Shown here piece by piece: positions 1 through 64,000 of a stretch of 64,000 nucleotides of DNA. Within the stretch, counting starts at the first letter, position 1; every line of letters begins with the position of its first letter. The notes beneath the pieces are model-generated. The model was not told the origin of the DNA. It ran no database searches and was given only the letters and a program-made list of their open reading frames with translations. The position numbers were made by a program, and so were the translations under genes. The DNA is from a virus (lineage: Duplodnaviria > Caudoviricetes), in IMG/VR virus record IMGVR_UViG_3300013121_000044, positions 32,001-96,000 of that record. One strand, written 5' to 3'.

Positions 1-2620
1 CCTGGACGAAGGGCGCCTCGCGCTCCAGAAGCGGCAGGGCCTGCGTGCCCATCTTCGAGCCCATGATGGCGCGGTTCCCCTGGATCGAGTGGATCATGGG
101 GATGAGGGTCGTGGCGGGCGAGTAGGCGTGGGACACGTGCCCGAGCTGGTGTGTGACGCGCGAGCCCGGGACACGCTTTACTTTCCCGTTCACGAACGCG
201 TCCACCTCCCCCTTCAGGTCTTCCCCGGCGAAGGCCACGACGTGGTGGGCAAGGTCGCCCGCCTTGAGGAACTCGTCCTTCCCCGTCCGGACGTTGCGCG
301 CGACGGTGTAGAGGTTCCCCTGGTTGTCGCGGTGCGCCGCGATCGTCGCCCGGATGTCGACGCCCGAGTGGCTCGAATTACCTGACCAATGCCCCCCGCC
401 ACCTCCCTGGCGAACATAGAGAAGGCCCCCAGGGACCGTGGCGCAGTAGACGAGACCGTCGTGTTCTTGGGTGAAGTAGTGCCCTTTCCTGGGGACGGCC
501 TGACGATACCGGTCCTGGAGCAGGCGCACCTCGTAAACATCGAGGTATCGGTCTTCCCGCTTGTCCGCATACACCGAGGTACGGACGGACCAGCCCAGGG
601 AGATGGCGAGACGCTCCACGTCGCCCGCCAATCTCCGGCTTGTGGTACAGAAAACTTCCTGCGTGTAAGTCTTCCCGGTCGCGCGGCGTGAGTCGATCCG
701 CCCATCCCCCAGGAGCAGGGTTTCGAGCAGGTTTCGGCGCGCCGCGACGGGCGCGTCGAAGAAGTACTCGGGAATGTACTTGGCATCGCAGAAGCCGAAT
801 TGGTGGAGATACGCCGCGAGTTGCCGGTGGCTGATGTGGAACCCTTTGTCGTTACACGACCACTTAAACGGGAGGCGCTTCAGCAGTGCCTCGATCGCGG
901 CGCACTTCCAGTCATTGGCGGCACGGCTCTGCGAGATCTGTACGTGAGCAGGCTGCCCGTTCGCCTGCGCGGAGGTTGATCCCTCCGACAGGAACCACCC
1001 CATGAAGGAGCCCCAGAGGGCGATGTCGATCGCGCGCGCCCTGCGCGGGTAACCCGCCAGCGTGGGAAGCGTGAATGTACGCTTGCGTCCGCCTCGGTAG
1101 GGGAGGTGTCCCGTGTCGAACACCCGAGGCCGCCCGTGCGCTTCATCCGCCCGCACGAGGTCGAAGCGCGGTACCGTGTTTTGGCCCAGGGGGTACACGC
1201 GATCGACGGGAGCGCAGAAAACCCTGTGGTTCGGTGTGACGAGGTAGCTGACCTTGCCCGCACGTACGCCGTACAGCCGCCCCGCGTACGGCTCTCGGAT
1301 CAGCCGATTCGCGCGGCAAAACGCCAACGCACCCCCGATCCGGCAGGCGAAGAAGTCCTTCTCGGTCACCGCGTCCCACCTCTTCCAGCCTTCTTTCGTC
1401 AATACTTCCCCGTCACCCCTGTGACACTCCGGCGTGCGGATCGGGTCGAGCGCGCCGAAGTGGGTGTTGTGGATCATTCGCGCGTCGAGCGGGATCGCCC
1501 GGTCCGAGGGGATGCCGCCTTCGCCGAGGCTGGTGACCTTGACGGCATGGTCGATGAGCTCCAACGGGTTGATCCCTGTCGGGACGGCGGTGAGAGACGA
1601 AGTTGTGACGAACTTCCGCACCGCGTCGGAGAAGGGGGCGGGCCGGAGGGCGTCGCGCACGGAAGTCTTTCCGTTGAGCGCGAACTTCGCCTTCTGGGAC
1701 CACACACGTGCGGAGAGGCGGATCCGTTCGGCCAGGAAGTCGTCCAGGGAGTGGAAGGTCTTGAACGTCAGCGCGTCCGTGTCGTCCGTGGACACCTTGC
1801 CGGAGTGAACGGCGAGGACTTTCTTCGCCGCCGCCAGGAGCGCATCCGGCGTGACCTTATCGTAACCCTTCCCGAGGGTGGCTGCTGTGACGTGAGGGTC
1901 CAGCGTAGTCTGGTCGAGTTTCCGACGCACCTCCTCCACCTTCCCCGCGTGGGGCGCCTTCGGGTTCATCACCGAGGGGTGGACGAGCTTCGCGTAGAGC
2001 TTCCCGATCGCCTTCTCGTCGTCCTTGCCGTGGGCGGCGGCATTGGCCTCCGCCACCCCGTGGCCGAGGTGCTCGACGACCTTGTCGTGCCCGACACCGA
2101 GCGCTTTCAGCACGGGGTAGAGGGGGATGTTCGTAGTCCCGTAACTCAGGTGGAACGTGCCGCGCTTCGGCTCGAAACCGAGGTCGAAGTTCTTCCCACG
2201 CCCCAGGTTGAAGATCGCCTTGAGCTCCCCGTTGTCCGCCCTTGCCGTGTACACGCCCGGCTTGCGTCGCAACTGGTTGGCCACCTGATACTCGTTGCCG
2301 TCCGCGACGAGCGTGTGCCTCTCTGTGAGATAAGGGAGGTGTACGATGGTGAAGTTCTTCGCTTCGTCGATGATCTTCCCGTCGGATCCACGCAGTACGA
2401 GCGTCCCTTTGAGGGCTTCGTCCAGGGATCCTCCCGTCAGCAGCGCCCGCCGCTGCTCCTCCGGGGAGTAGTGTTTCTCCACGACGCGGAGGTCTTTGAC
2501 TTCGAGCTTTCGCTCCCGCATGTCGAGGGGAAACGCGGTCTGAACAGCGTTCACGGCCTTGGACCGGACGCGCTCACGCAGGGACGCCGCGTCCGTCAAA
2601 ATGGGGGTCGGCTCGGTCAT
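1..2620 (-). CDS. Phage multisubunit RNA polymerase beta-like subunit (partial, runs off the window), intein-containing
   Basis: Manual translation from ATG 2620 is open to position 1. RpoB-like blocks: LPYLTERHTLVADGNEYQVANQLRRKPGV, NPLELIDHAVKVTSLGEGGI, IHNTHFGALDPIRTPE, SPATTLIPMIHSIQGNRAIMGSKMGTQALPL (E. coli has [24 protein letters not shown]). Confidence 0.93.
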   Translation of the reverse strand, partial: MTEPTPILTDAASLRERVRSKAVNAVQTAFPLDMRERKLEVKDLRVVEKHYSPEEQRRALLTGGSLDEALKGTLVLRGSDGKIIDEAKNFTIVHLPYLTERHTLVADGNEYQVANQLRRKPGVYTARADNGELKAIFNLGRGKNFDLGFEPKRGTFHLSYGTTNIPLYPVLKALGVGHDKVVEHLGHGVAEANAAAHGKDDEKAIGKLYAKLVHPSVMNPKAPHAGKVEEVRRKLDQTTLDPHVTAATLGKGYDKVTPDALLAAAKKVLAVHSGKVSTDDTDALTFKTFHSLDDFLAERIRLSARVWSQKAKFALNGKTSVRDALRPAPFSDAVRKFVTTSSLTAVPTGINPLELIDHAVKVTSLGEGGIPSDRAIPLDARMIHNTHFGALDPIRTPECHRGDGEVLTKEGWKRWDAVTEKDFFACRIGGALAFCRANRLIREPYAGRLYGVRAGKVSYLVTPNHRVFCAPVDRVYPLGQNTVPRFDLVRADEAHGRPRVFDTGHLPYRGGRKRTFTLPTLAGYPRRARAIDIALWGSFMGWFLSEGSTSAQANGQPAHVQISQSRAANDWKCAAIEALLKRLPFKWSCNDKGFHISHRQLAAYLHQFGFCDAKYIPEYFFDAPVAARRNLLETLLLGDGRIDSRRATGKTYTQEVFCTTSRRLAGDVERLAISLGWSVRTSVYADKREDRYLDVYEVRLLQDRYRQAVPRKGHYFTQEHDGLVYCATVPGGLLYVRQGGGGGHWSGNSSHSGVDIRATIAAHRDNQGNLYTVARNVRTGKDEFLKAGDLAHHVVAFAGEDLKGEVDAFVNGKVKRVPGSRVTHQLGHVSHAYSPATTLIPMIHSIQGNRAIMGSKMGTQALPLLEREAPFVQ
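377..1426 (-). mobile_element. Intein (350 aa) with LAGLIDADG homing endonuclease in the RNAP beta-like gene
   Basis: TPE|CHRGDGEVLT start; block B VTPNHRV; LAGLIDADG blocks FMGWFLSEGS and LLETLLLGDG; block F VYCATVPGGLLYVR; ends WSGN|S. Removing it restores TPE-SSHSGVDIR. Confidence 0.9.
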
Positions 2621-3130: not shown

Positions 3131-4857
3131 GACCCCCCTCGCGTCTGTGCCTTCATCTCGGCCTCTTGGTTCTGCTGAATCTGCTCCAGGAGCACCCGCA
3201 GTACGGCGTACGCCACCCCGTCCTCGGTCTTGATCTGATCGAGTCGACTCTGGCGCGTGCCGGGGTCCATGCCGACGAGCTCCTCCGCGAGGGGCGTGTT
3301 CGCTGCGAACACCTGGGCCGGGTCATACGATTGACCGCCGGAGCTCCGCATGGCTTGTTGACGGGACTGGAGGCTCAGGGACTGCTGCTGCTTCTGGATC
3401 GCGAGCTGCGTCTCCGTCTCCGCGCGCGCGTCGTCGAGAGCGTCCTGCCGACGTTGCTTCCGCTCGTGCGTGAGGTCCTTGTCGATCGCATCGGCCATTG
3501 TCGAGTCGCTGATCTTCCCGGCAGCCCACATCTGCGCGGTGAGCTGCTTGTTCTCGGAGTCGTCCACCATCTTGAAGTCGGCCAACTTCATGGGGACGGA
3601 GGCCCATCGAAGGAACGACGAGGCGCGCTCCTCAGTCCACTCGATGAGGCCGTTCAGGTTCTCGATGTGCACCCGGAGCTGGTTCTCGATCATGCGGAGG
3701 GTGATCTCCCCCCGCGTCTGTCCGAGCCCGCCCTTGAGGAACTCGATCGGCACGCCGAGAGAGAGGACGATGTTCTCCTCGGCCTGCTGAAGCTCGCCGA
3801 GCGTGAGCAGGGTCTTGCCCTCGCCGCCGACGTTCTGCACCCCGACGGGAATGGGCGAGAACATCAGGCGAAGCGGGTCTCGGCGGAATGCCTTGTAGTT
3901 CATCTCCAGCTCTTGGCGCCATCGCTGGAGGTTGATGGTGGTGAGGGGGTCGCCCTGGCCGCTCGCCGCCAGCGGGTGCATCACGCGGAAGGGCGTGATG
4001 TGCTCCAGGGCGATCGCCTCGTTGGCGCGGCGGAGGATGGCCGTGAAGAAGAACATCTTGATCGCGGCGGTGATCGGCGGGTACCCCCACTGCGACTCGA
4101 CCCCGGCGGGGCCCGGCATCCGCATGTGGTAGAGGGCCCCCTCGGCGAACTTGAAGGTCTTCTTCTCCTTCATCGCCGCCAGGAAGGCCATCGGCATGTG
4201 GTTGATCTTGGTCTTGTTCCCGGCGCGAACGTCCGCGATGAGCGAGCGCGGGATCGTGTAGTAGTAGACGCACTCCCCGGTGATGGGGTTCGAGTCGATG
4301 TCGATCAGCTTGGGGTCCCACCGGATCAGCTTGAGCTTCGCGGGGTCCCGGAGCTGCTCGTCGATGACCTTGGAGATCACCCGGAGCCTGCCGCAGTTCC
4401 GGCAGTCGTGGCGGAACTCCAGGCGGTCCAGGTTGAACGCGTACCGCGCCGCGCACACGTCCTCGCGCGTGTGGCAGTGCGGGCACTGGAGGTCGCGCTT
4501 GATGGGCTCGTAGAGGGACACGAAGCTGTTCCCCGTGAGCCACACGTCGAAGCTCACGAGCGTGAGGAACCCCTTCAAGCGGAGCTGCTTCTCGAAGAGG
4601 CGCTCGTGCCGCTTCTTCTCGGCCTCGCCGCTCGTCTCGTACACGAAGCGGGTGATCGGGTACTCCCCGAACTTTCGCACCGTGCCATAGATGTGCGCGG
4701 AGTTGAACCCGATGTATTCCGCTTGACGGAGGAGGTCCTTGAGCTTGCGGGGTGTGAACCCCGTCAAGTAGTCGAACATCGGGTTGGGGTGGCTGGAGCC
4801 ACGCGCCCCCGAGAGCGGGTCGGAGAACTGGTCGAAGTCGATCACTTGCGAACTCAA
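3127..4857 (-). CDS. Portal protein with zinc-ribbon insertion
   Basis: 576 aa with portal-like segments DVWLTGNSFV, LYHMRMPG...WGYPPI and LSLGVPIEFL; CPHC...CRNC insert. Start uncertain (TTG). Confidence 0.75.
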   Translation of the reverse strand: MSSQVIDFDQFSDPLSGARGSSHPNPMFDYLTGFTPRKLKDLLRQAEYIGFNSAHIYGTVRKFGEYPITRFVYETSGEAEKKRHERLFEKQLRLKGFLTLVSFDVWLTGNSFVSLYEPIKRDLQCPHCHTREDVCAARYAFNLDRLEFRHDCRNCGRLRVISKVIDEQLRDPAKLKLIRWDPKLIDIDSNPITGECVYYYTIPRSLIADVRAGNKTKINHMPMAFLAAMKEKKTFKFAEGALYHMRMPGPAGVESQWGYPPITAAIKMFFFTAILRRANEAIALEHITPFRVMHPLAASGQGDPLTTINLQRWRQELEMNYKAFRRDPLRLMFSPIPVGVQNVGGEGKTLLTLGELQQAEENIVLSLGVPIEFLKGGLGQTRGEITLRMIENQLRVHIENLNGLIEWTEERASSFLRWASVPMKLADFKMVDDSENKQLTAQMWAAGKISDSTMADAIDKDLTHERKQRRQDALDDARAETETQLAIQKQQQSLSLQSRQQAMRSSGGQSYDPAQVFAANTPLAEELVGMDPGTRQSRLDQIKTEDGVAYAVLRVLLEQIQQNQEAEMKAQTRGGS

Positions 4858-6899: not shown

Positions 6900-7426
6900 A
6901 AGCTGTTCTCCAATACACCGCCGAAGATCTCCGCCGCCTCGTCGCGGAAAACGCGACCTCCCTGGGATACGCCGTATTGCCGGAGGAGGTGGACATGCCC
7001 GACGACATCACCGTCTCGGTGCAGTTCGAGGGCGTGCCTCGTCCACCCACGCCGGTACAGCTCGCGCAGACCGCTGGGGAGGCTCCGGAGGGCGCTACCC
7101 CAGGACCCCCGCGACCTCCCGCGAGCAAGATTCTCCCCTCGCAGGAGGGGGCCTGGACCTCGCAACCCGCTCGCGGCGGTGATCCGCGCTACGTCCCGAT
7201 CGAGCCCCCCACGTTCGCCCCTCGCGTACCGCGTGTTCGCGAGGTCGGGCAGGACACCGGCCTCGTTCGACGCGAGACGGGGACGGAGGACGGGCGCCCC
7301 CGAGGGTGGCTGCCCCCCTCGACGGAGCAAGACCCGGAGGCTCCGCCGGACGGGGCGGGCATCCCTGAGTTCGGCGAAACGGCGGATTTCCTCGACGAAT
7401 ACATCACTTCTCCGAGAGGGCGCTGA
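6896..7426 (+). CDS. Hypothetical Pro-rich protein
   Basis: GTGA overlap with the SNF2 stop; 176 aa. Confidence 0.65.
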   Translation: MKAVLQYTAEDLRRLVAENATSLGYAVLPEEVDMPDDITVSVQFEGVPRPPTPVQLAQTAGEAPEGATPGPPRPPASKILPSQEGAWTSQPARGGDPRYVPIEPPTFAPRVPRVREVGQDTGLVRRETGTEDGRPRGWLPPSTEQDPEAPPDGAGIPEFGETADFLDEYITSPRGR

Positions 7427-7427
7427 C

Positions 7428-7622
7428 GTGGAGAAGCACGGCGTCGTAACAAAAGAACCGACAACTGAGGTAGAAGCTCCCGCGTCCAGGACTTTACGCC
7501 GTACTGCCGACGTGGCAGAACCGGCGACGTGCCCAAGGTGCCAAGGACCTCTTCTTTCGCCCACCCCCGAGTGTTCGTCGACGCGGTGCGGGACCTGCGG
7601 GACCGCACCCTTCGAGCGGTAA
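7428..7622 (+). CDS. Small zinc-ribbon protein
   Basis: GTG start, MEKHGVV...CPRC...CGTCGTAPFER; 64 aa. Confidence 0.6.
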   Translation: MEKHGVVTKEPTTEVEAPASRTLRRTADVAEPATCPRCQGPLLSPTPECSSTRCGTCGTAPFER

Positions 7623-9012: not shown

Positions 9013-9849
9013 TCAGGTCGCCACAAGCTCGCTGCGCGCGTCGGGGTTCGCGGCGTGCCACTGTCGAATTTTTTCGATCGCACCGTCGCGAATGGCACGA
9101 AGTTCGGGGACCATGAAGATGGAGCCGTCCATGCCGTAGAGGATTTGCGCGGCGGCCTCTTCGTCGTGTGCGTTGCCGCGCAGTCCGAGCAGGAGGGTCA
9201 ATACGACCCGCTCGCGTCGATTGAGACCCGCCGCGTGAAGTTGCCCGAGTGCTGCGCGCCCTTTTGGCGTCGCGGATACTTCCACGTCATCGTCCGACGC
9301 GATCTGCACGTCCTCGATCGGAGTCATCACAGGATCCGGTGGCCCGTCACCCCGCAGCATCGTCTGCTTTCGCAGGTGGACCGAGATGTGGACGGTTCCC
9401 AGCCGGTGCAGAACTTCGTCCATCTTCACGTCCACCCAGTGCGCGGCGTAGGTGAGGAAGCGAACCGGTTTGTTCGTTTTCTTTGATCGGTAGTTCGGGT
9501 CGTACTTATCGACGGCGATCATGAGCCCCTCGTTACCTGCGCTGATGAGTTCGGGGAGGAGCTCCTTGTCGCGCGTCCGATCCCTTGCTTTGCCAATCAC
9601 AAAGCGGAGATAGCCTTCCGCGAGACGCCCTCCCAGGCGTGCCCGCTTCCTTTCGCTTTGAGCACGCACAACCGGGTCCGTCATGGTCTCCAGGGCGAGC
9701 TTCAACGCTCTGTATTCCACGAACCCGGCGCGCTCTTCTTCCTTCGTCGGCAGCGAAAGTTGTCCGACTTCCTCGAAATAGCGTGCGATTGTATCCCGCA
9801 TACTCTCGGGATATACACTCTTTTCCCCGACATGTCGTCGGCGAGTCAC
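9013..9849 (-). CDS. Sigma70-family factor (RpoD/RpoS-like)
   Basis: Region 1.2 YFEEVGQLSLPTKEEE; region 2 YLRFVIGKA...ELISAGNEGLMIAVDKYDP...RFLTYAAHWV; region 4-like LNRRERVVL. Start may be ATG 9801. Confidence 0.85.
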   Translation of the reverse strand: MTRRRHVGEKSVYPESMRDTIARYFEEVGQLSLPTKEEERAGFVEYRALKLALETMTDPVVRAQSERKRARLGGRLAEGYLRFVIGKARDRTRDKELLPELISAGNEGLMIAVDKYDPNYRSKKTNKPVRFLTYAAHWVDVKMDEVLHRLGTVHISVHLRKQTMLRGDGPPDPVMTPIEDVQIASDDDVEVSATPKGRAALGQLHAAGLNRRERVVLTLLLGLRGNAHDEEAAAQILYGMDGSIFMVPELRAIRDGAIEKIRQWHAANPDARSELVAT

Positions 9850-11157: not shown

Positions 11158-11213
11158 GGGGGAGGGGGGTGCGCCGTACGTCGTTCGCGGCGTACGGCGT
11201 ACTCCTCTCCCCC
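11158..11213 (+). other. 26-bp RNA hairpin with UUCG loop
   Basis: Arms 11158-11183 and 11188-11213 pair fully, with 4 G-U pairs on the + strand. Confidence 0.8.
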
Positions 11214-12148: not shown

Positions 12149-15100
12149 ATGGCACGAGGGAAGGGCTCCAACACCACCTCCGTCCGACATTCCGATGCGA
12201 TTGAGTTGATGCGGCGCTTGGACATGGGGCGCCTGCGTCAACTTATCACCCAGACCTTTCCCGCCACGAAAGTCACGCAGGTCTCTACGCAGATTCTGCA
12301 AATGAACTGCCTGACGCCCGGACACCCGGACGTTCACCCGTCGTTCTACATCGACTTGAAGCGAGGACGCGCGTTTTGCAAGTCGCCCGCGTGCGGGTAC
12401 AGCACGCGCAACCTCCTTCAACTCCTCCAAGACTGCCGGGGTTGGTCCTACGCAGAGGGCCTCGCGCAGGTTCAAGCGATCACCGGGACGCGCCTCGTCT
12501 CGGAGAAGCTCGACGCGGCGTACGAAGACCTCGACCAGCATCGCACCGCGATGAGCACGCTCGCGTGGGCCGTGAATACGTTCCTCGTGGGCATGATCGC
12601 ACCCCCGGACGGCGACGCCGCGTACGACCCGATCGCGCAACACGCCGCGAGCGGTGCCCTCGCGTGGCTTTTCGAGCACCGTGGGCACAAGAAGGACCTC
12701 GCCGCCTACTTCTCGTACGGCCTTTGGCCTCCGCTCCACCACCTCCTCGCCCTGTGCGAGAAGCGCCTCGGGGACATGGCGAGCGAGGAGTACCGCGCAG
12801 GCCACACAGCCCGGCTTTCCCCGGATCGTCGCGAGAAGATCCTGGAGCGCATTCGTCGACTCGCAGAGTCCGTCGGGACCGAGTGGGTCTACTCGGTGGC
12901 CTTCATTACCGGCCATGACTTCAACACCCCGGCGCGCATCCGACTGCGTCGCCCGGATGCCGAAGACCAGAAGCAAGGGAACATCTTCACCCTGGCAGGG
13001 CACGTACCGGACGAGCCGTACGGCTACTTCGGGCTTTATGCCCCGCACCTCGCAGGTCTCACGAAACGGGAGGCGCGGTCCCTGCGCGTCCTGGTGGTGG
13101 AGGGCGAACACGACGCGCTGTCCGTCGCCGAGGGTCTCCTCGCGGAGAGCGTGACCGCCTGGACAGTAATCGGCGCCTGCGGCGACGACGGGACCGCTTC
13201 GTCGAACGAAATCGACGCGCTCGCGGACGCGGGGATCGAGGTTGTCTACCTCCTTCACGATCACCCGGACCCCGAGCTCGGCAAAGGGGAGGGGTGGCTC
13301 CGGAAGAAACTCACGACCGCGCGGAAGGTTGACCCGCGCGTGTTCGTGCGCTGGCGCGAACTCCGGGCGGAGAACCAGCTCGCCAAGGACCCCGACGACG
13401 TGATCCGCCTCGCGGGGTTCCGTCACTTTCGCCGCGTGGTGCTCGACGACGACAAGAGCTTCGTCGCGAGCGACGAGTGGGCGATCGAACGTGCGATCGA
13501 GGAGGGGCGCGACCTCCCGGACGTGCGAGAGCGCACCGCGAAGGCGGCCAAGTACGGGGAGTGCCTCGCGCACCCCGAGAGGCTCGCGAACTTTCTCGAC
13601 AAGGTGGCGGGCCCTCTCGGGGTTGCGCCCGGCGTGGTGCGGTCACAGATCGTGCGCGGTCAGGACGACGAAGCCGGCTTCATCGGTCGGATCGCCGACA
13701 CGATCGTCCACGACCTCCACTTCCTCTACAAGGAGGACACCATCAAGGGGTCCATCGTCCACGCCTACCACAAGGACACGCAGCGCCCCGTGCGTTTCCA
13801 GGTGGATGACGGCCCCGGGATCCTCACCGCCCTCTCGAACGTCGTGGGGGACGTGCACGACTACTTCTCGCAGCGCGTGGGGCTCCCGGCGTGGCTCTCC
13901 GACGCGCGGGCGACGGAGGCCGGGTCGCCCGTCTTGCGAGAACTCCAGAAGCCGCTGGCGGACTACACCCGGATCGCGCTCCAGCGGCTCTTCCACGGCC
14001 TCCCGTCGCGGGAGGAGTGCGAGATCGTCGGGCTCGGCCCGCATCTTCGCGAAAACGCGGAGGCGCCGTACGGCGTACTCCAGTACATCAACAACGGCAA
14101 CCGCGTCATGCGCTGTCGGTTCTCGGACGCGGAGAAGCTCACGGCGGAGTACCTCCCGGGGCCGTCGGACGGGAAGATGCTCTTCACGCTGTCCCCGCAA
14201 CCCTTTCGCGGCCACTGCCGCACCCCGGAGGACATCGAGTGGGGTAACACGGTCACGATCGAGGATCTCGCAGGAGTGCTCCGCGATTTTACGGAGCTCT
14301 TCAACTGCTGGGCGTTTCGTCGTGGGAAGCTGGAGGCGGTCACCGCTGCCCTTTCGCTTTTTCACACCGCAGTTCCACACTTCTGTCCGGACAAGATCAT
14401 CTTCGGGTTGACCGGTCCCACCGGCTCGGGCAAGTCGAAGTTCATGGCCCTCTTCTGCGGGGGCCAACACCCGGACCTGTGCATGATCGACTGGGCGACC
14501 TACCAGTCGAACTACACCCCGGCGGGTCTCTACAACTTCTTCGACGGGTCGACGAACCTCATGGCGTTGGAGGAGTTCACGGCGGACGCGCTCCACCGGA
14601 TGAAGGCTCAACAGGTCGAAGACATCATGGAGCTCGTGCGGCAGGTCCCCTTCCCCGGGGGGGCCCAGGTTCGCCGCATGTATGGGGGCGTCTCGCGTGT
14701 CATGACTATTCACACGAATGTCATGGTCACCTCGGTCAACCCCCCTCGCGATATTCAGGACGCCAACCGCCGCCTGGAGATCGAAACCGTGAAGGTGGTT
14801 GGGCACAAGGACCCCGCCATTGAGATGTACCGGAAGTTCACGCCGGAGCGTCTCGCGTACATGCGCCGCGCGTTGAACCTCGGTCTTCTGAAGTTCTACG
14901 GGCGCTACCGCGCGCACTACAACCTCATCGCCCCGTGCTTGGCAACGGAGATGGCGGGGGAGCTCAAGGTCGAGTCGCGCTTCCTTCGGAGCCTCGCAGG
15001 ACCCGCCACGATGCTCGCCATGCTCGGCGGCGACTGGAAGAAGTTCGTCACCGAGTGCGTGGCCGCGCGGCGCGACACCCTCGACGCGTACGCGCATTCG

Positions 15101-19479: not shown

Positions 19480-19868
19480 AGGACTCGCCGAAATTCTGGG
19501 CGCGGGAGTATCTGTGCGAGCCTCCGCCGCGCACGGAAGCCTATCGGCGCGCCTACATCCTCTGGTGTGTCGCGCACGCCCTCATGGAGCGGAAAGATCG
19601 CACGTACTGCACGGGCACGGGGCACGAAGGGGAGGCGCTTCCTTTGACGGGGTGGGAGCGCGACGCGGTGAACCGCACGGGGAGGCGCATGTACAAGGCT
19701 CTCCGGCGCCTCGCCGAGCGATTCCCAGCAGAGGATTGGAAAGCGGCGAAACGTGACGCCGAGCGCACGTCCCTTCGGGAGCGTGAACGCATCGCACAAG
19801 ATCATTCGGACGTGGTGGCGGAGGTGCGCGCTGCGTACGCCGTATTCTCGGAGGGGTACCCGGTATAA
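19476..19868 (+). CDS. Hypothetical protein
   Basis: GTGA coupling with the upstream gene; 130 aa. Confidence 0.65.
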   Translation: MKDSPKFWAREYLCEPPPRTEAYRRAYILWCVAHALMERKDRTYCTGTGHEGEALPLTGWERDAVNRTGRRMYKALRRLAERFPAEDWKAAKRDAERTSLRERERIAQDHSDVVAEVRAAYAVFSEGYPV

Positions 19869-25513: not shown

Positions 25514-25905
25514 GACTCACCTCCGAGGACATAGGTTCGCTCCCCGGGCACGGTCAGCGAGGCAACCTCCGGGTCCCACGCGGCAGCCACTTCGGCGAGG
25601 CGCCGCTTCGTGTGCTCGATCAACGTCGCGAGTGCGGTTCTTGCGAGCGCGTGAGAAGTCGCGCCCATTGCGCGAAAGAAGGTGCGCCCGAGGTCCCGGG
25701 CTTCCTCGCGAGAGTTCGGCCACGCGGTGATGTCGTCCACCGTGGCGACGTGGCTATAGGAACCGTCGTCCGTGCGGTGAACGAAGAGCTCGCGCGGTAC
25801 GCCGTACGCCTGCGCGACGACGAAGCGGCACGTGTACGTCACGCCCCCTCGCCCATCGTCCTCGCGACCCACTGTCTCTTCGACGCGCACCCAGGCGGAG
25901 CTCAC
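25510..25905 (-). CDS. Hypothetical protein
   Basis: 131 aa; coupled on both sides. Confidence 0.65.
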   Translation of the reverse strand: MSSAWVRVEETVGREDDGRGGVTYTCRFVVAQAYGVPRELFVHRTDDGSYSHVATVDDITAWPNSREEARDLGRTFFRAMGATSHALARTALATLIEHTKRRLAEVAAAWDPEVASLTVPGERTYVLGGES

Positions 25906-47821: not shown

Positions 47822-50800
47822 TGACCTACTAGAGACGTTAGCGCCCCCGCCACGGTGGAGTTTCGGAGGTTTTCGCTGGTCTCCTTGAGATCGCGCGCGG
47901 CCTCCAGAAGCGCATCCGAGGCGCGGCCGATGCCCGCCCCTTCCATCTCACTCTGCGTCCCCGCGCTCTCCCTCGCGCCGAGGGCGGCTTCACGCTCGGC
48001 CCCGGATCGAGGCGTGAGGCCCGCCATGACGGCGCGCTCGCGCATCGAATCGACGAAGCTGTGGGCGGCGGAGCCTACGCGCTCCCGGAAGGAACGGCTC
48101 AGGTTCGCGAACGGGAGCTGGGCCGCGAGCAAGTTCGCACCCCCCTCGATCACGCGTCGCCGCGTGGAGTGCTCCGTGTCCCAGTTCCTCCGGTCTGCGT
48201 CGGCACCCTCCCCCATGCCACCCGCGAGAGCTTCCACCCCTGCGAAGTCGCCGCGCTCCAGGAGCGCCGCGAGACGGGCCCCGCCACGCTCGCGCCGGAG
48301 CCGGTGGAGCTGATCCGGGGAGAGGCCCTCCAGCGCCCGGCGCACGCCGTCGCGGTCGGACCCTTGCACGTCGCGCAGGGCGTCGCCGAGCACACCCCCC
48401 TGTCGGGCCATCATGGAGAAACCTGTCGCCGCCGCGCGACGCGCCTTCTCGTTGATGCGCGTCTCCTCCGCCCCGCCCATCCGATCGAGGAGCGTCGCGC
48501 TGTCGCCTTCGAGCATCCCGCGCGCGGCGGCGAGGACGCGCTCGTTCCCCTCGTAGCGCGCCCCGAGCGTTCCCGCGCGGCGTGCGATCTGCGCCTGCTC
48601 CGCGTCGCTGAACCCCGACAGGATTCGCGCGCGTGCCGCGTCCGCGCTCTCCCGCTCCGCCGAGGTGCCGCCTGGACGAAGAGCTCGGAGAGCCGCCAGG
48701 GCCCCCACCGCGCGGCGGCTCCGTTCGTAACCCGCCGTGCCTTCGCGCCCGAGGCCCCGCGCCTCGTCCATCACGGTGTCATAACCCTCGCGACCTTCAG
48801 CCCCCGCGTGCCCCAGGACACGACCGTACGCCGTACGGACGGCGGCCTGTCCCGCCTCGGTGTCCCCCGCCGAGTCTCGGAGGCTCCGCTGCGTGTGCTC
48901 CCAGGAACGACGCTCCTCCGCCGTCATGCCCCGCGATTCGAGATCCGCCCCCACGGCCGTGGCGATCGCGCCGCGCTGTGTGCGCCAGTTTGTGCGGATC
49001 TGCTCCTCGTCCATACCGCGCCGTCGCATGACGTTCCGATATCTCTCGTAGATCTCGCTACCTTCCATGCCTCGCGTACCAACGAGGAGGGGCGCCAGCG
49101 TGCCCCCGGCTCCGCCCGGAACGAAGAGGGACGCCCCTCCGATCATGTCGACCTTATTGCCGCGCGAGCCGAAATCGTTCGCCATTCGACTGAGACTCGT
49201 GGACACGTCCGAAAGCCCTGCACCACCTCCGAAGAGTTCTCCCACGCGGCCCATCGCCGCCCGCCGTTGCGCCTCCGTCGCCCCCACCACGTCTGACGCG
49301 AACCCGGCGCCCGACTGAATCGTGTAGCGCTGACGCTGACGCTCCGTCGCGTCGTCGGTGAGGAGTCGTCCGGCGGCGACGAAGCCCGCCCCGAGTCCGC
49401 TCGCACCGTGCAGTTGAGCATAGCGATAACCCGTACTCACCCGGTCGAATACATCTTCGGGCGCGTCCGTGTGGGGCTGTCGCGCGACGTAGTTTGCGTA
49501 GCTCGCGGTCCGGTACGCGCCGCGCACACGGCGACGCCCCTCCTCACTTTCATCCCCGCCGTAAAGGCCGTGCGCTTCCTCCCCGCCGAAAGCGCCGCTC
49601 AGGTTTACGCCGAGATGATGGATGCCTCCCCGCATGGCGCGACCGGCGCGGCCCGCCCATGTCTGCCGGTAGAGCGTCCCCAGCACGCTCGGGTCCCCCT
49701 CCTCGTAGTTTCGGTCGGCCACGGCGCGCGCCTCGCGCTGGTCGGTGGCGAGCTGGGCGCGCTGCGTAGACCAGTACGCGCCGCTGCCCATCTCCGTCGC
49801 GCGTGCGAGGGCCTGCGTCCGATCCATGCCGAGCGCCTGCGCCGCCGTCAGGAACCCCTGCGAGCCGCCCATGCCCATCTGCCGCGCCAGGGAGAGAACC
49901 TGTCGGTCTTCCATGTTCCGCTGCGCGAAGGGACCTTGGGCTTGGATCATCCGCCCCAAGGAGTCTTGCAGCATGGGTTGCATCGCCACCGCCATGCCGA
50001 GCCCTCCGACGCCGAGACGTTCCGTCATCCCCGTGAGTACGTTCGACCCGCGCCCCGTCATGCTGAAGAGGTCCGAACGGCCGGAGAGCATGTTCTGGAT
50101 CGCCCCGGCGTTGAGCCCGCCTCCCGTGCTCATCGCCCCGGGAGTAACCATCGGGAGCTGAAGGAGCGCCCCCGAGAACATGGTGTTCAGCGTGCCGAGC
50201 CCCTGCGCGCCGCCCGTGAGGGCCGCCATCTGGGGCGAGAGCGTCCCCCGGTTGATGGACGAAGCCGCCTGGGCGTAGTTGCCCATCCCGACCTGGAAAC
50301 CGAGCCCCTGGGTGAGGCCCATGGACTGGAAGGCCGAGGAGCCCATCGCCCCACCGATCTCCGCGAGGCCCTGGAAGGTCGTTCCCGCCATGCGCGCGAA
50401 GGAGCGCCCTGCTGACACGGCCGCCGTCGTCTCGTGGAGATTCAGGCCCGACGCGCGGAGAGATCCCATCGTCTGGATCGCACGCACCACGTCCGGCTCG
50501 CGCGCCAGCTCCATGAAGGCCGAGAGGCTCCGCGCCACGTCGCGGACGCGACTTGTCATCTGGTCCGGAGACCCGACGCCGGTCATGAGCCCGGCTTCGG
50601 AAGCTCCCTGGGTCACCTTGAAAAGGTCTTGCTGATTGAAGCGATCCCTCGTCTCTCGCCGGAAGGAAGAGGATCCGGCCAGGGCCGTGATGCCCCGTGA
50701 CGCCTCCAGCGATGCGTGGTGAGAGAACCCCTGGCCCCCGGCGTGGAGGTGCGGGCCACCGGAGACGAAGCCGCGCGACAGGTGTTCGAGGCCAGCCGCG

Positions 50801-51471
50801 CCCCCGTACTCCGCGAGACGCGGCGAGGTCACCCACGATCCGTAGAGATTTTGTGCGCCTTGCCCCATGCCCGAGAGCTCGGAGCCGAGGAGCCCGGCCA
50901 CGGCTCCCGCCGCCATGCCCCATGCCCCGAAGCGGCGCCCCATCATCGCGCCTGCGCCAGCCGCCGTGAGGCCCGCTGCGGCACGAGCGCCGACCCCTTG
51001 CGCGCCCTGGCCGATCACCCAGGCGCGATCCTGCGCGGCTTGCGCCTGCGCGAGCTGACCGCCGTACGGCGTATCGAAGGCAGAAGGAGGCGGCGCAGGC
51101 GCGAAGGGCACTGCGCCCGTTCCCTGGAATCCGGCGTAGGCCGGAGGAGGGTTGGGCGCGTATGGCGTGAAGGGCGAAGGGGTCCCACGGAACGCGCCGT
51201 AGGCCGAGAGGCCCGCGTAGGGGTTCTGCGCGGCGTAGGGGTTGTAGGGCGCGGAGGGGTTGATGGGCGCCATCACCCCCGTGGGCCCTTGGAAGATCGG
51301 GGGCGTACCTACGGCGGTCTGGTAGGTCTGGGACGGGAAGAAGGATCCGAACGCGCCGACCCCTCCCTGCGTGGCGATCGCCGCTGAGATCTGGCCCGGG
51401 AAGACGACCTGCGGAGCGGGGAGGAGGCCCGCTTGTGCCTGCATGGAGTTGTAGGAGAAGAGCGGGTCCAC
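47818..51471 (-). CDS. Tape measure protein
   Basis: 1217 aa, Ala/Gly/Met/Arg-rich and helical; directly downstream of a frameshifting chaperone pair. Confidence 0.8.
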   Translation of the reverse strand: MDPLFSYNSMQAQAGLLPAPQVVFPGQISAAIATQGGVGAFGSFFPSQTYQTAVGTPPIFQGPTGVMAPINPSAPYNPYAAQNPYAGLSAYGAFRGTPSPFTPYAPNPPPAYAGFQGTGAVPFAPAPPPSAFDTPYGGQLAQAQAAQDRAWVIGQGAQGVGARAAAGLTAAGAGAMMGRRFGAWGMAAGAVAGLLGSELSGMGQGAQNLYGSWVTSPRLAEYGGAAGLEHLSRGFVSGGPHLHAGGQGFSHHASLEASRGITALAGSSSFRRETRDRFNQQDLFKVTQGASEAGLMTGVGSPDQMTSRVRDVARSLSAFMELAREPDVVRAIQTMGSLRASGLNLHETTAAVSAGRSFARMAGTTFQGLAEIGGAMGSSAFQSMGLTQGLGFQVGMGNYAQAASSINRGTLSPQMAALTGGAQGLGTLNTMFSGALLQLPMVTPGAMSTGGGLNAGAIQNMLSGRSDLFSMTGRGSNVLTGMTERLGVGGLGMAVAMQPMLQDSLGRMIQAQGPFAQRNMEDRQVLSLARQMGMGGSQGFLTAAQALGMDRTQALARATEMGSGAYWSTQRAQLATDQREARAVADRNYEEGDPSVLGTLYRQTWAGRAGRAMRGGIHHLGVNLSGAFGGEEAHGLYGGDESEEGRRRVRGAYRTASYANYVARQPHTDAPEDVFDRVSTGYRYAQLHGASGLGAGFVAAGRLLTDDATERQRQRYTIQSGAGFASDVVGATEAQRRAAMGRVGELFGGGAGLSDVSTSLSRMANDFGSRGNKVDMIGGASLFVPGGAGGTLAPLLVGTRGMEGSEIYERYRNVMRRRGMDEEQIRTNWRTQRGAIATAVGADLESRGMTAEERRSWEHTQRSLRDSAGDTEAGQAAVRTAYGRVLGHAGAEGREGYDTVMDEARGLGREGTAGYERSRRAVGALAALRALRPGGTSAERESADAARARILSGFSDAEQAQIARRAGTLGARYEGNERVLAAARGMLEGDSATLLDRMGGAEETRINEKARRAAATGFSMMARQGGVLGDALRDVQGSDRDGVRRALEGLSPDQLHRLRRERGGARLAALLERGDFAGVEALAGGMGEGADADRRNWDTEHSTRRRVIEGGANLLAAQLPFANLSRSFRERVGSAAHSFVDSMRERAVMAGLTPRSGAEREAALGARESAGTQSEMEGAGIGRASDALLEAARDLKETSENLRNSTVAGALTSLVGQ
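48176..48310. repeat. 135-bp exact direct repeat, copy 2 (in the tape measure gene)
   Basis: Identical to 42403-42537. Confidence 0.95.
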
Positions 51472-52546: not shown

Positions 52547-54583
52547 ATGGCAACTCTTCGTGAATGGCTCTCGAATCCCGCGCTCGGACTCGTTCGTTCG
52601 GTGCGCTCCTCCCAGATCGCCATGGCCGAGGCCGTGGACGACGTGATCGCAAACGGCGGTCTCGCCTTCCTGGAGGCGGGTACGGGAACAGGCAAATCCT
52701 TCGCCTACGGCCTGCCCGCCGTCCTCTCCGACAAGCGCGTGGTCATCTCGACGGGGAAGAAGGCGCTTCAAGAACAGCTCGTGGCGAAAGACCTCCCGCA
52801 CCTCACGCGCACCGTACGCGGCGCGGGGTACGCCCTCGTGAAGGGCAAGGGGAACTACGTGTGCGAACTCCGCGTGGAGGAGTTCCGCAACAGCTCTTTC
52901 TTTTTGTCGATCCCCAACGCGGAGACGGATAGGTTCTTCGCGTGGTTGGAGGACGACCAGTCCAAGGAGGGTCTCGGAGATCTCTCGGGCTGGACCCTCC
53001 CCTGGATCCACAACGTTCGGGTGACCGAGTGCGTGAAGAAGCACTGCCCCCACGCAGAAGACTGCGGCTACGTGCGAAGCCGCGAACGTGCGAAGGCGGC
53101 GCGACTCCTCGTCGTCAACCACGCGCTCCTCGCGCACGACCTCGCCATCGGGGGCGGCAAGATCCTCGGGGAATACGACGTACTGGTGATCGACGAGGCG
53201 CATCAGGCGCCGAAGTTCTTCCGCGACGCGTTCTCCCTCCACCTCCACCCCCGGCAGCCGGACGTGATCGCGCGTACGCTCAAAGACTCCGACTTCGAGC
53301 TCGGGGAGGACTTCGCCCGCGTCTACGTCTCGATCTTCTCCGCTCTCCCGAACCGCGCGCAGGAGCTCCACCTCGACGCGACCCTCGTGGCCCTCTTCGG
53401 CGAGCTCTACGCGAAAGTGTCGCGTGTGCACGAGGCGATGCTGTCGCGCGGCATCCTCGACGATGCGGAGGGTGGCGAGAGCGGCGGGCCGAGCGAGTCC
53501 GCGCGCGTCCGCGCGAAGCTGCGGGCCGGGGGCATGATGCTCGGCAAGGTCCGGCGGCTCTGCGAGATCGTCTTGGCCCTTCCGCCGGGGAACGCCCCCA
53601 CCGGGGACGCCGAGGACGCCACGCCCGTCGCGCCTCCGAGCGAGTGGGTGAAGTTCGTCGAGAAGCGAAACCGCGACGAGACGCAGGTCGTCGTGACTCC
53701 GCTGGAGGTGGGGCCCCTCGTGGCCCCCTCGCTCCTCAGCCTCGGCGGCGTGGTGGTCACGAGCGCCACGCTCGCGACCGCGAACGGGATGGAGTACGTC
53801 GCGCGCGAATACGGCCTGTCGACCAAGCAGATCCGCCTGAAGAGCGTGTACCCGTCGCCCTTCGACTACGCCAACCAGTCGGCCCTCTACGTGTCCGGCA
53901 CGTCCCCGGACCCTGCGTCGCGGAACGCCGATTACTACGCGCGCATGTGCGTCGAAGTTCACGAGCTCTGCGACGCCTCGCGGGGCGGGGCGTTCGTCCT
54001 CTGCGCCTCGACGGAAGACATGGAGGAGATTCACAACGGGATTTACAAACTGAACGTCCTGACGCGCGGCCCGACGACCTACCGCCTCGGGAAACAGACG
54101 GGGGCCTCCCCGGAGGTGCTCGTGAAGTGGTTCCTCGACGACCCCACCAGCGTCTTGGTGGGCCTCAAGACCTACTGGGAAGGCGTCGACATCCCTGGGG
54201 ACGCGCTGCGGCTGGTCGTGATCCCGCGCCTGCCTTTCCCGAACCGAGGCGACGTGATCCTCACGGCACGCAAGCGCGCCTTCATCGAACGGCTCCAGGA
54301 GGAGAACCCGGACCTCGACACGGACAAGGCGGGCATCCGGGCGTGGGAGGCGTTTGATTTTCAAGAGGCCATCATGGACTTGAAGCAAGGCGCGGGACGC
54401 CTGATCCGTACGGAGACGGATCGCGGCATCGTCGCGATCCTCGACAAACGCGCGTACCGGCGCGCGAAGAACTACTCGCACAAGGTCCGCGCCGCGCTGC
54501 CTCATCCGGAGACGTACGAGAAGGAGACGGTGCTCCAGATCCTGCGGGGCTTCGGCGCACAGGCGCTCGCGAGGACGCGATGA
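52547..54583 (+). CDS. DinG/YoaA-family helicase
   Basis: EAGTGTGKS, KGKGNYVC with Fe-S-type Cys, VVNHALL, IDEAH, TSATL, YWEGVD, RLPFP, QGAGRLIR. Confidence 0.93.
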   Translation: MATLREWLSNPALGLVRSVRSSQIAMAEAVDDVIANGGLAFLEAGTGTGKSFAYGLPAVLSDKRVVISTGKKALQEQLVAKDLPHLTRTVRGAGYALVKGKGNYVCELRVEEFRNSSFFLSIPNAETDRFFAWLEDDQSKEGLGDLSGWTLPWIHNVRVTECVKKHCPHAEDCGYVRSRERAKAARLLVVNHALLAHDLAIGGGKILGEYDVLVIDEAHQAPKFFRDAFSLHLHPRQPDVIARTLKDSDFELGEDFARVYVSIFSALPNRAQELHLDATLVALFGELYAKVSRVHEAMLSRGILDDAEGGESGGPSESARVRAKLRAGGMMLGKVRRLCEIVLALPPGNAPTGDAEDATPVAPPSEWVKFVEKRNRDETQVVVTPLEVGPLVAPSLLSLGGVVVTSATLATANGMEYVAREYGLSTKQIRLKSVYPSPFDYANQSALYVSGTSPDPASRNADYYARMCVEVHELCDASRGGAFVLCASTEDMEEIHNGIYKLNVLTRGPTTYRLGKQTGASPEVLVKWFLDDPTSVLVGLKTYWEGVDIPGDALRLVVIPRLPFPNRGDVILTARKRAFIERLQEENPDLDTDKAGIRAWEAFDFQEAIMDLKQGAGRLIRTETDRGIVAILDKRAYRRAKNYSHKVRAALPHPETYEKETVLQILRGFGAQALARTR

Positions 54584-54876: not shown

Positions 54877-55317
54877 GTGAACACGCTCCCCCCCACGACG
54901 TGCGCCGTCTGTCGGGGCCCCGTCTTGCCCGGACACAAGGTGCAGCAGGTCTGGGTGGTCGCAGAGGTGTCGGAATACGGCGTACCGCTCGTCGCGCAAG
55001 AGCCTGAGGCGGCACACGTCGCGTGTGCGGACCCCCTTCACCCCTGGCGTCATCGGGACGTTCCGCGCACGTCCCTCCGAAAAGGTCTCGTCGAGATGCC
55101 CCAGAAACTCGCCCCCAGTCACCAGTGCGCCAAGTGCGGTAAGGTCTTCCGCGTGGGTGACCGCGTTCAAGAGCTCTATGTCGTAGATGCCGTGGCCGTC
55201 GACCCTCAGATCGGTGCGCCCGGGATCCGCTGCGCGGGGCAGGCGGAGTATGCGCACAAGGACTGTGACGACCCCGACCTGTCGAGGGGCCGCGAGGCCC
55301 TGGTGGTGCTCTCATGA
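54877..55317 (+). CDS. Tandem zinc-finger protein
   Basis: Two similar CxxC...HxxCxDP units. Confidence 0.7.
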   Translation: MNTLPPTTCAVCRGPVLPGHKVQQVWVVAEVSEYGVPLVAQEPEAAHVACADPLHPWRHRDVPRTSLRKGLVEMPQKLAPSHQCAKCGKVFRVGDRVQELYVVDAVAVDPQIGAPGIRCAGQAEYAHKDCDDPDLSRGREALVVLS

Positions 55318-58986: not shown

Positions 58987-59108
58987 GGGGGAAGGGTAGG
59001 GGTGGGGGAGGGGGAATACGCCGTATGGGGGGTCTAAAACAGGGGGTCCCCCCGGGTAGAAGAACATGTAGGGGAAGACCGGCCCCTAAACCCCCAAGGA
59101 GGACTCCC

Positions 59109-61184: not shown

Positions 61185-61214
61185 ACGACAAGAATACGCC
61201 GTACGGTCGGACCG

Positions 61215-62483: not shown

Positions 62484-64000
62484 ACAAGGTGACCCCCACC
62501 CCCCAACAAATCGCCGCGTGTGAACACGTCCGCGACTCCAACCGGAACCTCGCCGTACGCGCCCGTGCGGGCACCGGCAAGACCACGCTCCTCGTGAAGC
62601 TGACGGAGCAGATCTCGCGGCGCGAGAAGGCTCTGGCCGTGGCCTTCAACAAGTCGATCGCGGAAGAGCTGCGTGCCCGCGTCCCGCGCCACATCGACGT
62701 GAAAACCCTTCACGGTCTCGGCTTCGCCGCGATCCAGCGCGCCTGGGGCCGGAGACTCGAAACCGACTCGCAACGGCAGCGCTCGTACGCGCGCGAGGTC
62801 GTGCCGGAATCGCCGAGCTGGTCGCATCGCACGGTCGTGGGGACGGTGTGCAAGCTCGTGTCGATGGCGATGGGGCAGCTCGCGACGACGCCTGACCACG
62901 TCGCCGAGGTCATGTACGAGTACGGCATCCTGGCGGATCGGGGCGTCAAGCCGGAGCAGTACGTCGACTGGGCCGTCCAGGTGATCGCGCGAAGCCGCGC
63001 CGAGACCTCCGCGATCTCCTTCGACGACATGGTGTTCCTTCCCGCCATCGAACACGTCATGACAGGCGCGTACGATGTGGTGTTCTTCGACGAGGCGCAG
63101 GACGCGAACCCGGCGCAGAAAGCGCTCCTCCTCGCGGCGGTGCGGCGCGGGGGGAAGGTTGTCATCGTCGGGGACGACCGGCAGTGCCACCCGGCGGGGG
63201 TACTGGTTCGCGTCGCAAGCAATCGCGACGTGCCGATCGAACAGCTCGCCGGCAGAAGCTCGGTGATGGGGTGGAATCGCCCCAGCCAGAAGCTCATCGG
63301 CGGAAGACCCTTCCAGATCTCGGAGCGCCCCTACCAGGGGCCGATCCTCACGATCGACGTGGAGGGACACTCGAAGTCTCTTCCCGTGACTCCCAACCAC
63401 AAGTTCCTGGCCCGCTGGTCGGATCGCACCAGTAACGTGTGCGTGACCTACCTGATGCGTCGGGACGGATTCGGATACCGCGTGGGATGGTGCAAGCTCT
63501 TCAACACGGGGAGAGTGAAGAGTCTGCACCTCGCACATCGGGCTCTGCTCGAAAAGGCGGACGCCGTGTGGATTCTGAAGATTCACGACGGGCGAACGGA
63601 CGCTAGCGTGTATGAGAGCATCGTCGCAGCAAAGTACGGTCTCCCTACGGTGACTTTCGAGCCGGTCGAAGGTGCGAACCATCTGACGGAGACAGCGATC
63701 GGCAGCATCTTCGTGGCTCTGCGCGAAGATAACGAGGTTCGGGGGGCGCGGGCGCTTCAGGAACACGGCCTGGACGCGACACTCCCTCTCCTCCCCTATC
63801 CGACACATGCCAGCGACGGTCCGGGTCTGTACCGACGTGGTACGTACTTCGTCTGCTACGCGACGAATCTGATTCCCAGGATGATGGCCCTCCCCCTCGG
63901 AGAGGGCGTCAACAACTGGGCTCCGGTCTCGGACGTGAGGCGTACGCCGTACGCAGGCCCTGTGTACTCCCTCGATGTCTCGAAGGACCACAGCTACTGC
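62480..64000 (+). CDS. UvrD/Rep-family (SF1) helicase, partial, intein-containing
   Basis: Manual translation: TPQQ, ARAGTGKTT, AFNK, KTLHGLG, FDDM, FDEAQD, VGDDRQ; open to the window end; absent from the ORF track. Confidence 0.9.
   Translation, partial: MNKVTPTPQQIAACEHVRDSNRNLAVRARAGTGKTTLLVKLTEQISRREKALAVAFNKSIAEELRARVPRHIDVKTLHGLGFAAIQRAWGRRLETDSQRQRSYAREVVPESPSWSHRTVVGTVCKLVSMAMGQLATTPDHVAEVMYEYGILADRGVKPEQYVDWAVQVIARSRAETSAISFDDMVFLPAIEHVMTGAYDVVFFDEAQDANPAQKALLLAAVRRGGKVVIVGDDRQCHPAGVLVRVASNRDVPIEQLAGRSSVMGWNRPSQKLIGGRPFQISERPYQGPILTIDVEGHSKSLPVTPNHKFLARWSDRTSNVCVTYLMRRDGFGYRVGWCKLFNTGRVKSLHLAHRALLEKADAVWILKIHDGRTDASVYESIVAAKYGLPTVTFEPVEGANHLTETAIGSIFVALREDNEVRGARALQEHGLDATLPLLPYPTHASDGPGLYRRGTYFVCYATNLIPRMMALPLGEGVNNWAPVSDVRRTPYAGPVYSLDVSKDHSYC
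63185..64000 (+). mobile_element. Intein with GIY-YIG-like endonuclease in UvrD motif III (partial)
   Basis: VGDDRQ|CHPAG; block B VTPNHKF; VTYLMRR...YRVG; block F VYSLDVSKDHSY at the window edge. Confidence 0.82.

Follow-up and report, generated by a model that had tools for sequence, protein, structure and literature searches.

A 64,000-nucleotide stretch of viral DNA (here termed the window; bases 32001–96000 of one 186,803-bp contig, IMG/VR virus record IMGVR_UViG_3300013121_000044) carries 27 copies of the odd-length palindrome TACGNCGTA (TACG-N-CGTA), and the complete 186.8-kb phage genome carries 90. The palindrome is under selection at the level of DNA, and its copies form an evenly spaced lattice, about one site every 2.1 kb, along the whole chromosome. 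It is proposed, with somewhat more confidence than doubt, that these palindromes act as genome-wide loading sites for an orphan ParB/KorB-family CTP clamp encoded by the phage gene at 7887–9008 of the window (hereafter parB). Recognition of the sites by ParB, its action as a CTP clamp and the use made of the lattice are argued here by analogy with ParB, Noc and KorB.

All 27 core starts listed in an earlier note on this DNA are exact matches to TACGNCGTA. The note had roughly estimated that fewer than one copy would be expected, and dinucleotide shuffles of the window agree, with 0.30 copies expected and never more than three. Its figure of about 70% for GC content was too high, as the measured content is 66–67% (66.3% for the phage genome). 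Genome-wide, TACG-N-CGTA is the commonest gapped 8-mer, despite its four A/T positions in a 66% GC background, and Markov models of orders 0–4 predict 0.7–3.5 copies per genome against the 90 observed. For codon-shuffle and frame analysis, 220 gene calls were made over the genome. Synonymous-codon shuffles (200, within each gene call) left 4.5 ± 2.1 copies in coding sequence, with a maximum of 10, compared with 66 observed. GTA is the rarest valine codon, and 38 of 258 GTA codons fall inside the motif. The codon-shuffle and Markov comparisons bear out the earlier suggestion that selection acts on the DNA.

Most of the sites (66/90) lie within genes, including the middle of genes of 3–5 kb; the figure of 24 outside gene calls is an upper bound, because small open reading frames (ORFs) were missed by those calls. 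In-gene sites are distributed over the reading frames as 38, 9 and 19, both gene strands are used, and 24 sites lie within 30 bp of a gene boundary, an enrichment over the 8.9 expected. The window sites are read as Y-x-V (15), T-[AP]-Y (7) or [VL]-R-R (3), with two intergenic; the earlier note had the same numbers for the second and third readings, but 14 and three for the first and last. A small conserved ORF holds the site at 7495, which is thus not intergenic. The selected element is wider than the core: S is found at −3 in 85/90 sites, R at −1 in 87/90, Y at +1 in 90/90 and S at +3 in 83/90, giving a symmetric 15-bp site, S-N-R-TACG-N-CGTA-Y-N-S. A recount of the window reproduced the earlier tally of 24 C/G centres (exceptions 16663, 27187 and 53174), 26 R..Y flanks (exception 7495) and three perfect 15-bp palindromes (45837, 48827 and 63943).

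Once overlapping copies are collapsed to 85 loci genome-wide, the gaps between sites have a coefficient of variation (CV) of 0.46, whereas random placement gives 0.98, and over 20,000 simulations the CV never fell below 0.66. The gamma shape of the gaps is 4.7, so the comparison with Poisson spacing suggested in the earlier note gives a departure in the even direction. The median gap is 2.0 kb and the largest 5994 bp (P = 2.5e-4), while gaps in the window range from 527 to 4670 bp with a recomputed mean of 2411 bp, as previously reported. The whole genome lies within 3 kb of a site and 93% of it within 1.5 kb, compared with 77% (maximum 87%) under random placement. Site placement tracks spacing, not promoters. 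This evenness test is not trivially passed, because the 34 palindromes of mycobacteriophage Corndog, used as a control at equal density, give a CV of 1.06.

Some copies overlap in intergenic spacers (59 bp and 77 bp), with three copies at 7-bp offsets at genome positions 104996–105018 (L096:4996–5018) and two at the same offset at 112950–112965 (L096:12950–12965). A further pair lies 29 bp apart, at genome positions 162328 and 162357. Overlapping or paired copies of this kind could be high-occupancy nucleation points. The largest lattice gap coincides with a stretch of ~4 kb (genome 156.5–160.6 kb; L095:6500–10600) that holds no lattice site, no codon-position signal and no gene calls. It is built of diverged tandem units of 200–260 bp, each with an AGGAGG-type ribosome-binding site and an ATG or GTG, and resembles an array of ~15 small paralogous ORFs; tRNA and Rfam scans of the stretch gave no match.

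Syntenic metagenomic loci of relatives were reached through ParB and PolA homologues; a related-locus search of IMG/VR that used PolA by itself gave no loci. Per 21 kb, TACGNCGTA occurs 8, 8 and 14 times in the relatives at 95, 81 and 68% DNA identity, respectively. Sites are conserved above a background of matched 8-of-9 windows, in 6/7 cases against 0.23 (P = 9e-4) and in 4/6 against 0.10 (P = 1.3e-3). In the 68% relative, 10/14 sites occupy new positions and one site has shifted by 31 bp; density is therefore maintained through turnover.

In more distant relatives, the sister palindromes TTCACGNCGTGAA or TTTACNNNGTAAA replace TACGNCGTA at equally even spacing. A de novo palindrome scan of all related loci of at least 10 kb separated class A (TACGNCGTA, 10 different loci), class B (TTCACG-N-CGTGAA, 3 loci) and class C (TTTAC-NNN-GTAAA, 7 loci); one locus counted under class A, L092, carries the intermediate TTACGNCGTAA. 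Lattice-bearing loci span a GC content of 45 to 69%, and the normalised gap variance pooled over 16 relatives' loci is 0.27 against 0.75 expected (0/5000 simulations as low). Related phages, to which the earlier note had looked for conservation and equivalent dispersed palindromes, thus provide both.

Several other palindromes were rejected as lattices. The top palindromes of L045, L067 and L055 are tandem-repeat or codon artefacts, and that of L028 is a local cluster. In L028, an outgroup relative (PolA 35% identity) with a ParB orthologue and no dispersed lattice seen, CTGCG-YAA-CGCAG, a 13-bp palindrome, occurs six times over 0.9 kb downstream of PolA (L028:14236–15157), which could represent a clustered, centromere-like or origin-like state. 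The overlapping-array form GTACGCCGTACGCCGTAC occurs in six IMG/VR contigs, where GTACGCC heptamers form local iterons; these contigs show neither a nearby ParB homologue nor a lattice and were set aside as unrelated. Such GTACGCC arrays (L001:3590–3800, L003:100–340 and L006:3540–3700) create overlapping TACGCCGTA words and look like iterons of another system.

The ParB-like protein mentioned in the earlier note is, by sequence and modelled fold, a genuine member of the ParB/Noc/KorB family, for which CTP binding and sliding are predicted. It has a Lys-rich disordered N-terminal tail, a CTPase-fold N domain with GRRRxRAA and ENxxR boxes, a ParB helix-turn-helix (HTH) domain, a disordered linker and a C-terminal helical hairpin. 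The match to Pfam HTH_ParB is strong (E = 2.5e-10, 40.9 bits against a cut-off of 22.6), and matches to Protein Data Bank (PDB) sequences include Spo0J, Noc, ParB and KorB and span the GxRRxRA box, ENxxR and HTH; the alignment with Spo0J 6sdk runs from its GERRFRAA box through ENLQR. Residues G130, R131, R133, E165, N166 and R169 are invariant across 17 orthologues. In an AlphaFold2 (AF2) monomer model (pLDDT 77.5), the hairpin is placed at residues 305–355, after the linker. The top Foldseek folds are CDP- or CTPgammaS-bound ParB, with Noc and KorB also recovered, and the HTH region matches the DNA-binding domains of all three.

A ParB orthologue and a convergent sigma-70-like gene occupy one syntenic position in every lattice-bearing relative that covers it, out to a relative with a PolA identity of 29%. 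Among 56 related loci, a lattice with a motif of this family is present in 18/27 with a ParB orthologue and in 1/29 without a detected one (Fisher P = 4e-7, kinship ignored), and the contig of that single locus ends before the parB position. Motif class also follows the ParB clades, with class B forming one clade, class A two, and class C basal. In the phage and in 14 related loci, which span classes A and C, a site lies 340–460 bp upstream of the parB ATG. Between the classes this palindrome is retained although the peptide that it encodes shifts from TLRRT to PLQGK, and the sequence around it in the Zn-ribbon ORF is poorly conserved. Such a site is as would be expected for autoregulation. 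The apparent 460-bp gap upstream of parB is occupied by two small ORFs conserved in relatives (7428–7622 and ~7637–7886), which the first gene calls missed.

Several observations weigh against ParB as the reader of the lattice. Pfam ParB_N is matched weakly, at 15 bits, and the usual Glu of the GERR box is Arg in the phage protein, so its CTP chemistry may differ. By eye, the recognition helix (VSQ[YH]L) is nearly unchanged between motif classes, and no clean specificity switch is therefore visible. Nine loci have a ParB orthologue and no detectable lattice. The ParB tree presumably tracks the phage tree, and the co-variation of motif and ParB would therefore fit any vertically inherited reader. 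Finally, the phage encodes two further proteins that could bind palindromes: an XRE-family HTH protein (97 aa, genome 99414–99707) and a protein with a LexA-type DNA-binding domain (LexA-DBD; 122 aa, genome 127777–128145).

The alternative that survives best, though unlikely, is that another dimeric DNA-binding protein of the phage, such as one of these two, reads the lattice and ParB has a different role. Palindromic operators are the usual targets of the XRE and LexA families, the 3′ end of the XRE gene holds a lattice site, and close relatives carry XRE homologues down to 65% identity. Beyond close relatives, no XRE or LexA homologue was detected, in a search that is insensitive for a 97-aa query. 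Half-sites in typical XRE and LexA operators are ~10 bp apart, unlike the 9-bp core, and neither protein accounts for the resemblance of the sister-motif arms to the KorB operator (OB) and parS, or for the conserved site upstream of parB.

It is improbable that a host factor reads the motif, or that the motif copies an oligonucleotide signature of the host (HIP1-like, uptake-sequence-like or Chi-like). Over-representation and even dispersal are typical of Chi and of uptake sequences, both of which, however, are asymmetric. Across the GC range of the lattice relatives, motif class follows the phage ParB clade rather than GC. A sample of 924 kb of bacterial DNA, mostly of high GC and made up of stretches each chosen for containing one site, holds 12 further sites, ~1 per 77 kb, and no stretch has a cluster.

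A similarly low probability is given to the sites being enzyme targets, whether for base modification, T5-like nicking, lagging-strand primase starts or recombination hot spots. Spacing of ~2 kb is on the scale of Okazaki fragments, the genome encodes dCMP deaminase, dNMP kinase, ThyX and a large primase-helicase, and some phage ParB-like proteins activate thymine dioxygenases (PMC13229309). However, the complete genome gave no match to the methylase families DNA_methylase, N6_N4_Mtase and MethyltransfD12 or to Tet_JBP, and no enzyme was matched to modification, nicking or priming; the methyltransferase-domain matches that were found accompany Hen1_L and PNKP RNA-repair matches in one protein set. 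The lack of a match to the three methylase families also separates the lattice from restriction-modification. The dioxygenase-associated ParBs, whose 5mYOX systems pair a TET/JBP enzyme with a ParB that has no DNA-binding domain (PMC13229309), differ on both counts from the phage, whose ParB has HTH_ParB. A site of 13–15 bp with symmetric flanks is moreover long for a methylase or primase.

A dispersed centromere for plasmid-like prophage maintenance, as with the SopB sites of phage N15, where dispersed centromere repeats are known, would suit the presence of a ParB-family protein, but is very improbable given 90 sites (far above the need of a centromere), a complete genome ending in 141-bp direct terminal repeats, no match to the ParA-type families AAA_31 and CbiA in that genome and no visible ParA-interaction motif in the N-terminal tail of ParB. 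The motif in question is of the LG[KR]GL type (PMC12704722). These features also set the phage apart from ParABS systems, and the lack of a ParA match and the terminal repeats disfavour classical segregation. The protein-binding lattice postulated in the earlier note is supported by DNA-level selection, spacing and conservation; of the roles listed there (organisation, segregation, protection or repression), the list is hardly narrowed beyond this disfavouring of classical segregation.

Returning to ParB as the reader, the best-fitting known system is KorB-OB, on grounds of architecture, the family of the neighbouring protein, the site upstream of parB and kilobase-scale tiling. On plasmid RK2, twelve TTTAGC(G/C)GCTAAA (OB) sites over 60 kb are read by KorB, a ParB-family CTP clamp (PMC11790492, PMC13768133), and KorB clamps slide to reach promoters up to ~1.5 kb away (PMC11790492). 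Both systems combine a ParB-CTPase-family protein that has an HTH domain with a short palindrome of odd length centred on C/G, at sites dispersed and unclustered over the whole replicon, one of them tied to the protein's own operon; kilobase-scale action is predicted for the phage. Class C shares its TTTA/TAAA arms with the KorB operator, and the class B arm matches the canonical parS half-site. In contrast, the RK2 sites all lie upstream of promoters, and RK2 has a ParA partner (IncC) and the clamp-locking proteins KorA and TrbA, whereas the phage has no ParA match and no identified KorA-like partner. Its 90 sites in 187 kb are 2.4 times denser, quasi-even and mostly intragenic, in a lytic-type genome with terminal repeats. 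From its density, even spacing, intragenic placement, lack of ParA and lytic-type genome, the phage lattice is judged to be related to KorB-OB and not a member of it.

The nearest published observation is the 17-bp repeat of Cluster O mycobacteriophages. Corndog carries >30 copies of TGTTCGG-NNN-CCGAACA, ~1 per 2 kb, between and inside genes and unexplained; it is not obviously temperate, encodes a protein with a ParB-like domain and lacks a parAB system (PMC4351075). The two phages thus share odd-length dispersed palindromes at similar density and a ParB-like protein without ParAB. The Corndog sites differ in being spaced as unevenly as random (CV 1.06) and crowded in the right arm, and its gp90 matches ParB_N alone, with no HTH_ParB domain. 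Noc of Bacillus subtilis (~70 sites in 4 Mb) is likewise an orphan ParB paralogue without a ParA partner that uses CTP and dispersed palindromes; it has in addition a membrane-targeting helix, and Noc is among the fold and motif matches of the phage ParB. The phage lattice is >20 times denser and covers the whole replicon, whereas parS sites cluster near the origin. The stoperators of Cluster A phages, dozens of repressor sites across the genome at roughly one per 2 kb (PMC9283540), have a role in lysogeny: a monomeric immunity repressor binds them, and they are asymmetric and aligned with the direction of transcription, whereas the sites described here are palindromic with symmetric flanks.

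By analogy with ParB, Noc and KorB, a dimer of the phage ParB would recognise each palindrome through its HTH domains, with specific binding predicted to palindromes such as GCGTACGCCGTACGC. The site-bound protein would bind CTP, close into a ring and slide away. Tiling at ~2.1 kb, with no gap >6 kb, would keep the whole 187-kb chromosome within reach of the clamp. The likeliest output would be chromosome-wide control or organisation of phage DNA. The clamp could, as KorB does, regulate at long range the transcription carried out by the phage sigma factor and RNA polymerase, or it could coat and condense the genome. The pairing of ParB with a sigma factor beside the RNA polymerase cluster, together with reported bacterial fusions of ParB-CTPase to Sigma70 domains (PMC12704722), points towards transcription; the two roles are nevertheless held to be equally open.

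A more specific form of this proposal is offered tentatively and is rather doubtful. In this lytic clade, evenly spaced loading sites might let a ParB–CTP clamp occupy all phage DNA, as a mobile partner of sigma factor and multisubunit RNA polymerase or as the seed of a ParB condensate that keeps phage DNA distinct from host DNA, while site and reader co-evolve into clade-specific 'self' words. As a transcription partner, and no less tentatively, the clamp might function much as the sliding-clamp activator of T4 late genes does, or as a KorB silencer in inverted form.

ParB–CTP clamps act in chromosome and plasmid segregation, in nucleoid occlusion and, as recently recognised, in silencing genes at long range on plasmid RK2. 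Phages often carry orphan ParB-like genes, most of them without known function (PMC12704722). In the literature searched, no published account of such even ParB-type lattices in lytic phages was found. The phage provides a testable function for an orphan ParB, with a complete genome, 85 predicted loading loci, spacing on the scale of clamp reach and, in relatives, natural variants of presumed specificity. If the proposal is true, a virus can tile its entire chromosome with clamp-loading sites, which would bear on the organisation, transcription or protection of DNA in large phages and would explain long-noted dispersed palindromes in phages such as Corndog.

The source contig is rated 100% complete in IMG/VR, with direct terminal repeats (the exact repeat is 141 bp). 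The genome encodes a family A DNA polymerase, a class II ribonucleotide reductase, helicases and a terminase, to which the annotations of relatives add a fused beta-beta′ RNA polymerase, a primase-helicase and a sigma factor. No lysogeny genes were seen in the examined parts of the genome. DNA similarity searches of cultured phages and plasmids gave no match to the phage, and tblastn of PolA against cultured phages returned distant matches only (24–30% identity), with no close cultured relative. The window sites and the genes of the parB locus are listed below.

Table 1. Lattice sites and parB-locus genes in the window (window coordinates).
Feature	Position	Strand	Context
Lattice site TACGCCGTA	1265..1273		in RNA polymerase beta-beta′ fusion gene (minus strand), read Y-G-V
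Lattice site	3202..3210		near 3′ end of 576-aa gene 3127-4857 (minus strand)
Lattice site	6968..6976		in 176-aa ORF 6896-7426; position kept in relatives at 95, 81 and 68% DNA identity
64-aa Zn-ribbon ORF	7428..7622	+	CPxC...CxxC motifs; conserved in relatives; upstream of parB; holds site 7495
Lattice site	7495..7503		in small Zn-ribbon ORF, 392 bp upstream of parB ATG; position kept across classes A and C
Orphan ParB/KorB/Noc-family gene, 373 aa	7887..9008	+	Pfam, PDB sequence matches, invariant motifs, AF2 and Foldseek
Sigma-70-like gene (region 2 detected)	9013..9801	-	convergent with parB; ParB-sigma pair conserved across clade
Lattice site	11193..11201		in 91-bp spacer upstream of PD-(D/E)XK nuclease gene
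Lattice site	14069..14077		in 1169-aa primase-helicase-like gene 12149-15658
Lattice site (T centre)	16663..16671		in DNA polymerase A gene 15703-19212
Lattice site	19836..19844		3′ end of ORF 19434-19868
Lattice site	20380..20388		in RNase_T-type exonuclease gene 19984-20817
Lattice site	24264..24272		in gene 23526-24542 (minus strand)
Lattice site	25798..25806		in gene 25510-25905 (minus strand)
Lattice site (T centre)	27187..27195		in ORF 26809-27384
Lattice site	29106..29114		in class II ribonucleotide reductase gene
Lattice site	33776..33784		in gene 33375-33872 (minus strand), read V-R-R
Lattice site	35211..35219		in 1178-aa gene 33869-37405 (minus strand), read T-A-Y
Lattice site	36573..36581		second in 1178-aa gene 33869-37405
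Lattice site	40864..40872		in gene 39862-41034 (minus strand)
Lattice site	41483..41491		in gene 41050-41757 (minus strand)
Lattice site	43795..43803		in 1290-aa gene 41754-45626 (minus strand)
Lattice site, perfect 15-bp palindrome	45837..45845		in gene 45616-46644 (minus strand)
Lattice site, perfect 15-bp palindrome	48827..48835		in 1217-aa gene 47818-51471 (minus strand)
Lattice site	51065..51073		second in 1217-aa gene 47818-51471
Lattice site (A centre)	53174..53182		in DEAD/Helicase_C_2 helicase gene 52544-54583
Lattice site	54976..54984		in ORF 54877-55317
Lattice site	59017..59025		in gene 58588-59067 (minus strand)
Lattice site	61195..61203		in 354-bp intergenic spacer
Lattice site, perfect 15-bp palindrome	63943..63951		in 806-aa gene starting at 62480

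Pfam scans of 190 proteins from the whole genome also identified an RNA-repair set (PNKP ligase, Hen1), a Thg1-like enzyme, an ADP-ribosylglycohydrolase, an EAD1-domain protein, ThyX, dCMP deaminase, dNMP kinase, a second SNF2 helicase and further matches to sigma-factor regions 3 and 4. The second-commonest gapped 8-mer of the genome owes its rank to a strand-specific hexanucleotide repeat, (GTCGNG)n, at genome positions 161585–162260, which amounts to 57 copies of GTCGNGGTC within 700 bp and would encode a low-complexity, dipeptide-repeat protein.

DNA near-identical to window positions 6000–14000 (0.91–0.97 of sampled words) is present in activated-sludge, sludge, wastewater and estuary sequencing runs from 2018–2025. 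Judged by shared words, at least 10 studies of activated sludge and wastewater yielded runs with near-identical DNA, metatranscriptomes included; the strains in these runs are too alike (~0.95 of words shared) to inform on site polymorphism. Sludge and wastewater metatranscriptomes contain 0.29–0.73 of the words from window positions 6000–14000. From these shared words, the phage appears to be widespread and transcribed in wastewater treatment plants.

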